Shown piece by piece: positions 6,001 through 9,000 of a stretch of 64,000 bases of DNA (position 1 is its first letter; each line of letters starts with the position of its first letter). Origin of the DNA: a virus (Duplodnaviria; Heunggongvirae; Uroviricota; Caudoviricetes); the IMG/VR virus record IMGVR_UViG_2531839193_000016; one strand, written 5' to 3'. The position numbers were made by a program.

Positions 6001-9000
6001 CCATGAAAGAAGGCGTGCCCCAGTTTGTGATGGCGTATATCGACATTCGCCTGGGTGTCATCATCTGCGGTTTAAGCGGCTGGAATATCACCGCGCGTGT
6101 TCTGCGCTACCTGATTGTTGACCGGACAGCAGCGCCTGCCGGGATATCTGCGGAGGTGGCGTAATGTTCTTTAAAACATCAAACCCTTCCGCGCTGGCTG
6201 CGTGGCAAAAATACCAGCAGGACTGCCAGACGGTAAAAGATGAGGCGAAACGCCTTGAGGCCGTGCTGAATGTTGCGTGCCGGTCGGTATTTGAATTCAG
6301 TATCAGTGGTTTTTGTTTTAAGGGACTGCGTTTTACGGAGGACAAATATCCTTTTCATCGCGACTTATGGCGAAAACCGACTGCGTCGAATGGCTGGAGC
6401 TGCACACCGCGCACATCACGTATCCCTAAAGCCCTGCGTGTTGCCTCTGATGAACTGAACAGTCTGTGGCGTGAATATTCGCCCGTCACGTATGCCAGAA
6501 CCGATGCCCTGTTGTTCTGGCTGGGTATTGACTTCTCAGCAATATTGTATGGTCCCGTGAACTGGTTCTGCGTTGACAATGTGATTTATCTTCAGTGCGA
6601 AGATGATTCCGCAAAACGGAAAATGACCGAAATTCTGTCTGATGAGTTTTATGCTGCCGAAAAGCGAGTCAGGGGGTGATGTATGATGATTTTACAACAC
6701 ATGGGGCGAAAAGGTCGTACACCCGCTCATGTCCGCGCGTGGACACCTGAAGAAGATGCGCTGCTGATTGCGCTTTATTCATCCACCCCGGTTAAGGATA
6801 TTGCTGCCAGAATAAAAAGAACTGTCTGGGCTGTATATAACCGGACTGGTGTATTGCGCAGTTCATACCCGGAGTTACTGAAATATAAACACCCAAGATT
6901 TACACCTGATGAAGATAAGTTTATTCGAAAAAATGCCAGAACAATGACCTGCCAGCAAATGGGAGAATATCTCGGACGTAATAAAGATTCTGTCAGATGT
7001 CGGGCAGGAATGATTGGTGCTGGATTAACAAAGTGCGGAGAGTTACGCCCCGGCACGCGCATATCTGATGATGATGTACGTCTTATACGTGCGCTGCGTG
7101 ATTCCGATTACCCACGCCGTCTGTCATTCCGGGAAATTGGCGAAAAGTTTGGAATATCTGAACATTCTGCTCACGCAGTTTATTACCGTCGCCGGACTGC
7201 CGAGGACGCTGTATTACGGGAGTTAACGCCATGATAACGACCTTATTTGTTGAATCAGATGAACCTCTTGTGTGTGCCGCCGGAATGCCGCTCTGTGGCG
7301 GAACGCTGACCGGTGTTTATTTCGGGGATTTACGCGGTTATCCCTGGCATTCACTGAATGATGCTTTCCCACCTGATATGGAGGCTGTCGTGCTGATTGT
7401 TCAGTATGGTCACCGTCAGGAGCTGCGCATCGGCCATATGGGGTATGAAGGCTTTTTTGTTGATGAAGAAACCGGAGCCTGCCTTGAAGATGAAGACGGA
7501 CAGGTGACGCACTGGTGTCATATTTCGGCTTTACCGGAATTACGGGAGGTGAATGCGTGAGAAGTTATATTGATAATGAAAAGCTGGAGACAATAAGCGA
7601 CTGTCTTAGCTTGCTGGCAAAAATCAAAGAAACTATTGAAGAGATTAAATTTCAGCTTGAATACGCACCATGTGGCGATGATGCATGGCGTAATGCTGCC
7701 AGAAAAGCACTGGCTGTCTTTCAGAAACAACGCCGGGCTGTTGAATACCGCCTTGCTGTATTGCGCCAGGAGGAAAAGGAAAGAAATATAAGACGTCATG
7801 AACGCGTTAATGATTTCCTTGTTCGTGAATTAAAAGAGCGCGTGCCGGAGTCGGTATTTTTTGAATGTGAGGCTATAGCCCGTAGCAAAGCACTGGAAAC
7901 AGATTAAGCAGGCAGGTGAATAATGAGTATTGAATTAAGATCGTCTTATGAATATCGCAAAATCCTTATCGCCGGAGGCATGAAACCGGAAGATGCAGAG
8001 AAATTCGTTTCTTTTATGGATAAAGAATGTGACAAGCGGGATATGCCAGAAATTATTATGGATGACATGATTCTGGATTCAGCCGTGGCGTTAAGTTCGT
8101 TATGGATTGTGCATACTCTTGCGGAAATAGCTAAAAGAAGTGACAAGCAGGCGGCTGTCGCCGCCCTGCGATTACTGGCTGAATTAAGTTGTTCAGTCAA
8201 TCCCAATACGTTCTTTGACGAACCTGGTTAACATTGATTTGGTAACTTCTTTAATTAGATCAAATGGTGCGTCTGTAAACTCCTTTTTGATTCTTTCAAG
8301 GATTGGTTTTTTTCTCAGGGCGTTAGCTAAATCATGCCCCTGCTGGGTAAGCATAATGGGCGTGTTTCTGAAACCAACGCCCAGAGAATGGAAAAAGAAA
8401 CCAATATATTTGGGTGTTTCTGACTGCATATCACCATTAACAATTGAGCCATTATCAGCGAGAAGCATAAGATGAAAAACTTTTTTATCCTTTTCCTCTC
8501 CTTCTGCCTCAGCCATGCCCAGATCCTGTAGTGTAAGGAAAGGTGTTTCAGCATCCTGAAAAGTTGTGAGAATACTTAATACTTCATCGTAATCTATTTT
8601 CATATCGATACCTTTAGTTTTATCCGGGCGGCGTTGCCATGCCGCCTGTTGTTACGGAGACACGATAATGAATCGCGCTTCCCTGATTACCTTAATACAT
8701 GTCGCAAAACGCGATCTACAGCTTGACCATGAGACCTACACATCCGTACTACTGGCAGCCACCGGCAAACCCAGTTGCCGGGATATGTCACCGGATGAGT
8801 TATCCCGCGTGCTGGATGTTTTCAAAAAACGCGGTTTTAAAGTGCGTCAGAAGCCGGTTAACCGGGCCTTAAAACCGGGGACGGTGACCGCCAAAATTCG
8901 CGCCATCTGGAAAGTGATGCACCGGCAGGGCTTTATCGCTGATGGCGGGGAAAACGCCATTAACCGCTGGGTGAAATCGCAGACGGCCGCGCAGAACGGC

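Follow-up and report, generated by a model that had tools for sequence, protein, structure and literature searches.

The window, a 64,000-nucleotide (nt) stretch of DNA from the IMG/VR virus record IMGVR_UViG_2531839193_000016, opens with the transposase genes of an Escherichia coli Mu-like prophage (A, 1–2091; B, 2164–3105). About 5.5 kb of small early genes lie between B and gemA. The subject of this analysis is the last gene before gemA, which is read from the minus strand at 8193–8603 and encodes a protein of the DUF2513 family, together with its plus-strand neighbors. An earlier note on this DNA had described three open reading frames (ORFs), at 7557–7907 (+), 7923–8231 (+), and 8193–8603 (−), and an overlap between the 3′ end of the minus-strand gene and the gene upstream of it. 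Both descriptions hold. The prophage of E. coli JKHS016 is 99.9% identical to the window, and RefSeq annotates the same three ORFs identically there. The region contains the following features:

7557–7907, + strand: early-operon gene of 116 amino acids (aa), phrog_6158 (expectation value, E, 1e-54), outside the swappable allele
about 7700–8850: exchange tract, 100% identical to strain 102651, with flanks 70–94% identical
7923–8231, + strand: o102, 102 aa, phrog_1988 (E 7e-38), helical, with a conserved C-terminal motif DKxAAVAAL
8147–8169, − strand: GC-rich, terminator-like hairpin, 24–46 nt past the DUF2513 stop codon, with an interrupted U tract
8193–8231: 3′–3′ overlap of the convergent genes, 39 nt long, the same length in locus L024 and 30 nt in L017
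8193–8603, − strand: DUF2513/phrog_585 gene, 136 aa, with a predicted acidic winged-helix domain and then three helices at the C terminus
8604–8667: divergent spacer between the DUF2513 gene and gemA, 64 base pairs (bp), the counterpart of the gp15–gemA spacer of phage Mu
8625–8648, + strand: hairpin of 10 bp, then UGUUGUU, 20 nt ahead of the gemA start codon (−17.6 kcal/mol, z score −2.2)
8668–9180, + strand: gemA (gp16 family; PF06252, E 6e-28), the conserved right-hand neighbor of the antisense slot
9185–9208: strong, symmetric intrinsic terminator between gemA and a Mor/C-family gene

Sequence comparison and a predicted structure identify the minus-strand ORF as a real gene, the product of which is a small, acidic member of the DUF2513 family with a winged helix. 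RefSeq names its product in JKHS016 "DUF2513 domain-containing protein", and the protein matches phrog_585 over its full length (E 7e-18). The match to the Pfam DUF2513 family (PF10711; E 6.6e-5) scores 23.6 bits, under the Pfam cut-off of 29.6 bits. Of 102 aligned homologs from the profile of the window protein, 79 match PF10711, the best with an E of 9e-15. A profile search of 1.84 billion representatives yielded 251 cluster representatives, nearly all of them single-domain proteins of 125–150 aa. AlphaFold predicts a winged helix plus C-terminal helices with a predicted local distance difference test score (pLDDT) of 97 and a predicted template modelling score (pTM) of 0.89. The ORF is intact and identical in six complete genomes and seven viral contigs and is also intact in a 94%-identical variant (L042). 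In a close variant (L013), one change is nonsynonymous and five are synonymous. The earlier note had taken the ORF for a genuine, AT-rich gene, and this view stands. It had recognized none of the three proteins; all three match PHROG families.

DUF2513 (PF10711), PHROG 585, and the related YjcQ family (PF09639) form the sequence family of the minus-strand protein. The residues H44, G68, and G89, conserved in the family, are present in the window protein, which differs from PF10711 in its sub-cut-off score and in having a methionine at Arg84. No member of DUF2513 or YjcQ has a described function in the literature searched, and searches for DUF2513, YjcQ, Mup15, and Pgem found nothing functional. 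Sequence searches of the PDB, with the single protein and with profiles, gave no significant match. Foldseek searches against viral structures and the PDB returned no hit at an E of 1e-3 or better, with whole-chain template modelling (TM) scores of only about 0.4. Rfam returned nothing relevant.

As judged from gene order, the standard layout of Mu has an antisense gene immediately ahead of gemA, and the DUF2513 gene is a variant of this layout, not a foreign insert. In Mu, gp15 (Mup15, NP_050619; phrog_8747) lies on the minus strand at 7896–8162 of NC_000929, shares 62 nt with gp14, and is transcribed away from gemA (8233). SfMu has the same arrangement with the gene SfMu_16. Because Mu and SfMu keep an antisense gene at the same place, the DUF2513 gene is not the intruder in a unidirectional operon that it had been thought to be. 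In both settings, the slot holds a minus-strand gene that is the final one ahead of gemA and whose 3′ end overlaps the preceding plus-strand gene (by 62 nt in Mu and 39 nt in the window). A spacer of 64–70 bp with the same hairpin separates it from gemA. The occupants themselves differ. The gp15 protein is 88 aa long, whereas the window protein has 136 aa and a predicted winged helix; the partner gene is gp14 for gp15 but a member of the o102 family for DUF2513. The window protein has no match to phrog_8747.

Two homologies between the slots were considered and set aside. Homology between gp15 and DUF2513 was rejected (hhalign probability 0.3%), and a test with five sequences gave no support for homology between gp14 and o102 (E 0.025). 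The public Mu records (L038/L039) also conflict at this locus: NC_000929 has the minus-strand gp15 of 88 aa, and AF083977 has a plus-strand gene of 55 aa, Mu_54. A full-length match to phrog_8747 (E 7e-60), a 46%-identical E. coli homolog, and a downstream terminator favor gp15. Gem activity is reported even in lysogens (PMC3820752, citing Paolozzi and Ghelardini 1992).

The placement of DUF2513 itself recurs widely. In distant Mu-like viral contigs, whose B and GemA are just 45–57% identical to those of the window, DUF2513 homologs with 45–54% identity lie directly upstream of gemA on the opposite strand. The same divergent placement is found in Edwardsiella, the single locus from a scan of genome contigs, and in a Shewanella algae prophage with a 33%-identical homolog. 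Mu-proper-type E. coli prophages, such as that of SE11, also carry DUF2513 in the antisense position before gemA.

Within E. coli, Mu-like regions related to the window occur in 232 of 5426 complete genomes, and comparison of these sequences indicates that the slot has three or more interchangeable alleles, the DUF2513 gene among them. The common allele, found in 215 genomes (e.g., E. coli 2013C-4081), retains 7557–7907 and 7923–8231 at about 93–98% identity. Homology to it decays from about 8135, is gone at about 8170, and returns at the gemA start. The intervening insert consists of two plus-strand genes for proteins of 65 and 98 aa (phrog_2358 and phrog_17269), the second of which overlaps the gemA start. 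The DUF2513 allele is present in six genomes and as one remnant with a deletion caused by an insertion sequence (IS). A third allele, in a member of the window's own lineage (L041), contains o102, a Mu gp14-like gene, and a minus-strand gene for a protein of 86 aa that is 46% identical to Mu gp15. The exchange tract around the DUF2513 gene is identical to strain 102651 inside diverged flanks, and the allele was therefore exchanged recently by homologous recombination.

Two relatives with this allele show further differences. In the remnant (L005, E. coli S1-CAM-01-A), an ISKpn26 insertion removed 7557 to about 8575 from an otherwise identical prophage; both plus-strand genes and most of DUF2513 are lost, and the prophage otherwise persists. 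L042 contains a second antisense ORF (4290–4694, 134 aa) with a guanine-cytosine (GC) content of 0.43 between gemA and mor. This ORF has no match among the proteins compared with that locus.

The DUF2513 gene is usually accompanied by a convergent partner. Wherever a Mu-like lineage has a DUF2513 protein with 45% or more identity to that of the window, the convergent neighbor is an o102 (phrog_1988) homolog, with an overlap of 30–39 nt. The pairing recurs in a non-Mu myovirus (L031), whose o102 homolog is detected by hmmsearch with an E of 1.6e-7. The final 25–30 codons of o102 belong to the swapped allele. The hairpin at 8147–8169 (−17.7 kcal/mol, z score −2.6) is conserved in the window, L042, L017, L024, and L027, and its plus strand encodes the AAVAAL of the invariant DKxAAVAAL motif of o102. 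From sequence, then, a single stretch is both a coding motif of o102 and a terminator-like element for the opposite strand. The gp15-type alleles have clear intrinsic terminators at the equivalent position. The AlphaFold model of o102 has five helices at low confidence (pLDDT 53) and is informative only on helical character.

The best explanation as a whole, to which we assign a probability of roughly one half, is that DUF2513 occupies the gp15-type slot as a counter-oriented accessory unit that is expressed in the lysogen and paired with o102. The DUF2513 gene would form its own transcription unit, together with its usual partner. The leftward transcript would begin within the 64-bp spacer, immediately to its right, or in the 5′ portion of gemA, and would end at the hairpin within the AAVAAL codons of o102. 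The strong symmetric terminator at 9185–9208 confines any leftward promoter of DUF2513 to 8604–9185. Expression would be tied to the repressed state of the early promoter Pe and hence to the lysogen. Induction would shut the gene down, through early transcription running against it and through base-pairing of the two messenger RNAs where their 3′ ends overlap. The winged helix would act on DNA or on a protein partner and would serve an accessory function rather than a core lytic one. A lysogen-expressed accessory role, which the earlier note had also proposed, remains the most plausible reading of the minus-strand gene. Its accessory character is supported by the count of six genomes with this allele versus 215 with the alternative, by the tract of complete identity inside diverged flanks, and by an AT-rich composition in every lineage. 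The surroundings of the homolog in L031 are a further point in its favor: the DUF2513 gene lies 10 nt downstream of an Arc/FitA-like ribbon-helix-helix (RHH) gene on the same strand, and that pair is divergent from a pair of Arc and Bro-N antirepressor genes. The layout is similar to the immI region of P22, with the DUF2513 homolog in an Mnt-like operon beside an arc/antirepressor pair; in P22, sieA neighbors mnt.

Several observations weigh against this explanation. In the window, the sequence upstream of the antisense gene contains no sigma-70 promoter of consensus type, and a lenient scan of 260 nt upstream in six lineages produced only a weak candidate in L027. The pairing with o102 is, on the gene contents compared, usual but not obligatory: 215 genomes have o102 and lack DUF2513, and the Shewanella, Klebsiella, and Vibrio contexts have DUF2513 and lack o102. 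R84, present in 97% of the family, is a methionine in the window protein and an isoleucine in the 94%-identical variant, and the window subfamily may be drifting. The family is acidic, with a median isoelectric point of 5.3 (5.2 for the window protein), and the winged-helix part of the window protein (residues 1–86) has 6 lysine or arginine residues versus 14 aspartate or glutamate residues. The acidity and the loss of R84 make DNA binding doubtful. Longer family members contain no informative extra domain or domain fusion, and PADLOC reports nothing below an E of 0.03 for the proteins of the block. One viral-contig copy (L014) is frameshifted by a 1-nt deletion in a run of seven adenines (at about 2017–2023), which could be a sequencing error or the mark of a pseudogene.

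The strongest alternative ranks below this explanation and is itself unlikely. It holds that the DUF2513 protein is a local regulator, a divergently transcribed repressor of the MarR/PadR type that binds the 64-bp spacer and controls gemA, the downstream activator, and itself. Such a repressor could, for example, keep gem or a semi-early promoter quiet in the lysogen. The predicted fold is a winged helix-turn-helix as in MarR/PadR-type proteins, and the divergent adjacency to gemA is conserved at 33–54% identity. In Mu, the homologous gp15–gemA spacer holds a semi-early promoter according to the curated record, and spacers of the DUF2513 lineages contain palindromes.

The spacer signals, however, do not follow the DUF2513 gene. 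The hairpin at 8625–8648 is common to Mu, SfMu, L041, and L042, with two compensatory changes. It is found beside gp15 alleles as well and is therefore part of the gemA leader rather than specific to DUF2513. The spacers of L017 and L024 contain a different palindrome at a different position, and a spacer of just 30 bp carrying a different palindrome occurs in DUF2513 lineages other than that of the window; the palindromes of the lineages are not positionally equivalent. DUF2513 is also found in phages without gemA, and the 215 E. coli prophages of the common allele have gemA without DUF2513. The protein likewise fits a DNA-binding repressor poorly. Pfam assigns it to none of the MarR, PadR, HxlR, and TubR families at the sequence level, and the structural similarity is at the low whole-chain TM-score given above. 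Its acidic domain is without a basic DNA-reading surface or the wing arginine, and the putative recognition helix has no conserved basic residues in the alignment of the DUF2513 family.

Two specific binding sites in the spacer were examined and rejected. The palindrome GGCGGC-N8-GCCGCC (8629–8648), a candidate DUF2513 operator, also occurs in Mu, SfMu, and L041, which carry gp15. As a site for a Mor/C-type activator, the dyad is judged to have its center too near both start codons for a position of −43.5 (PMC4390567).

Lower still ranks a two-gene conflict module, in which o102 and DUF2513 would form a toxin/antitoxin-like, exclusion, or defense/anti-defense pair whose balance is set through convergent, 3′-overlapping transcription. 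This proposal is improbable. It draws on the retention of the convergent, overlapping pairing in L031 as well as among Mu-like lineages. In L031, the order of the RHH gene and the DUF2513 gene resembles an antitoxin–toxin operon. HicA, ParE, Bro-N, and RHH genes are among the neighbors of DUF2513 in other prophages. Against a conflict module, neither Pfam nor NCBIfam profiles match a toxin, antitoxin, or defense family, and PADLOC adds no such match, so the suggestion of a toxin/antitoxin function in the earlier note gains nothing from these profiles. Each partner is also widespread without the other, and the low-confidence model of o102 is uninformative.

A more far-reaching version of the preferred explanation is speculative and has little probability as a whole. 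It would make the position before gemA a dedicated antisense slot for swappable convergent pairs, gated by collision with transcription from Pe. The o102–DUF2513 pair would then be a new lysogeny module, with an acidic winged helix that binds protein and a terminator embedded in the conserved codons of the partner gene. If true, the module would serve exclusion, defense, or host modulation.

The first interpretation of the region, namely that 7515–8667 entered the early operon as one moron of three genes with a foreign composition, is very unlikely to be correct. It has in its favor a low GC content across the entire block and the tract of complete identity with strain 102651, which covers all but the start of the block. 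The GC content is indeed low (about 0.42 versus 0.54), with values of 0.428 for 7557–8164 and 0.406 for 8165–8667 compared with 0.544 for the prophage (1–37000). The 500-bp windows of the block at 7557–8667 have GC contents of 0.40–0.416, among the 15 lowest of 730, and lie 2.6–2.9 standard deviations under the prophage mean (mean 0.546, standard deviation 0.051). The only prophage segment with a GC content below that of the block is the invertible tail-fiber segment at about 32.4 kb. Composition does not, however, set the block apart from the early operon, where several other genes are equally AT-rich, with GC contents of 0.42–0.46 (among them 3102–3329 at 0.417 and 4125–4445 at 0.445). The earlier note had regarded conservation in Mu-like phages at backbone GC as evidence against a moron. 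The position is conserved in this way, but the composition is not: DUF2513 and o102 are AT-rich in every lineage, at 0.37–0.46 versus 0.51–0.56 for their phage.

The comparison with L002, L003, and L041 contradicts insertion as a single unit. Only about 8135/8170 to 8667 is replaced in the common allele, and the gene at 7557–7907 and most of 7923–8231 remain 88–98% identical there without DUF2513. Both plus-strand genes are found in more than 100 related E. coli prophages; most such prophages hold both, at 88–94% DNA identity. The gene at 7557–7907 starts with a GTG that overlaps the stop codon of the upstream gene at 7231–7560 (GTGA). This stop/start overlap suggests that it is translationally coupled to the operon. 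Homologs of its product that are about 40% identical exist in the phages Fraca and AsXd-1. The gene is present in L002, L003, and L042 and absent from L041, and is thus variable on a wider scale. On this sequence evidence, both plus-strand genes are ordinary members of the early operon, and since they are so common there, the block is not a three-gene moron. The antisense position, for its part, is ancestral to Mu-like phages.

The DUF2513 allele nevertheless shares some properties with morons. It is AT-rich and counter-oriented and has a terminator-like hairpin, and presence or absence between close relatives applies to about 8135/8170–8667, but not to the plus-strand genes. It differs from morons of the Hendrix type in its location, because the slot is conserved among Mu-like genomes rather than being a random point of insertion. 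In addition, the promoter search in the window was negative, and expression in the lysogen is here a property that we infer.

Decay or lack of expression of the minus-strand ORF in this lineage is the least probable reading: the R84M change at a highly conserved residue, the frameshifted copy in L014, and the missing recognizable promoter point that way, but the identical copies, the intact 94%-identical variant, the mostly synonymous substitutions, and the very confident structure model argue against it.

The DUF2513 gene is a rare allele of a standard, uncharacterized feature of Mu-like phages and already carries the name DUF2513 in RefSeq. The earlier note was largely right in what it observed and partly right in its interpretation. 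Although Mu is a textbook phage, its entire semi-essential region, gp15 included, is functionally blank. The analysis shows that the slot before gemA is regularly occupied by an antisense gene and that at least three alternative gene sets fill it in one E. coli prophage lineage, with an antisense gene in the gp15-type and DUF2513-type sets. It also shows that the DUF2513 allele travels with a convergent partner and that its protein is confidently predicted to fold as a winged helix. The idea of a foreign insert is corrected, and the practical value is modest pending a phenotype. The allele provides a candidate, open to experiment, for a function that the prophage expresses and for regulation through convergent transcription, and its main use is as a way into what the gp15 slot does.

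Two further genes follow gemA and the terminator:

9251–9673: Mor/C-family activator gene
9745–10245: lysozyme gene, directly after the Mor/C-family gene

The Mor/C-family gene is the only one of its family here, and its protein is closer to Mu C (39.7% identical, E 4e-36) than to Mu Mor (27.8%). One activator seems to serve the window prophage, where Mu uses two. Farther to the right, the invertible tail-fiber segment at 32232–32900, which has a tail-fiber assembly gene on the minus strand, is the prophage patch of lowest GC content (0.38–0.40). Two extra genes lie between a Gin-like invertase gene (33244–33816) and mom (37248–38180), one at 33902–34687 (261 aa, without a Pfam match) and the other at 34738–35955 (405 aa, DUF6645). 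They may be accessory or defense cargo at the right end of the prophage. Fragments of IS110-family and IS1 transposase genes (38652–40363 and 42037–42792) lie just to the right of mom and are followed by the host gene mlaA. The lowest GC content of the whole window, 0.35, is at 40.5–41.2 kb.

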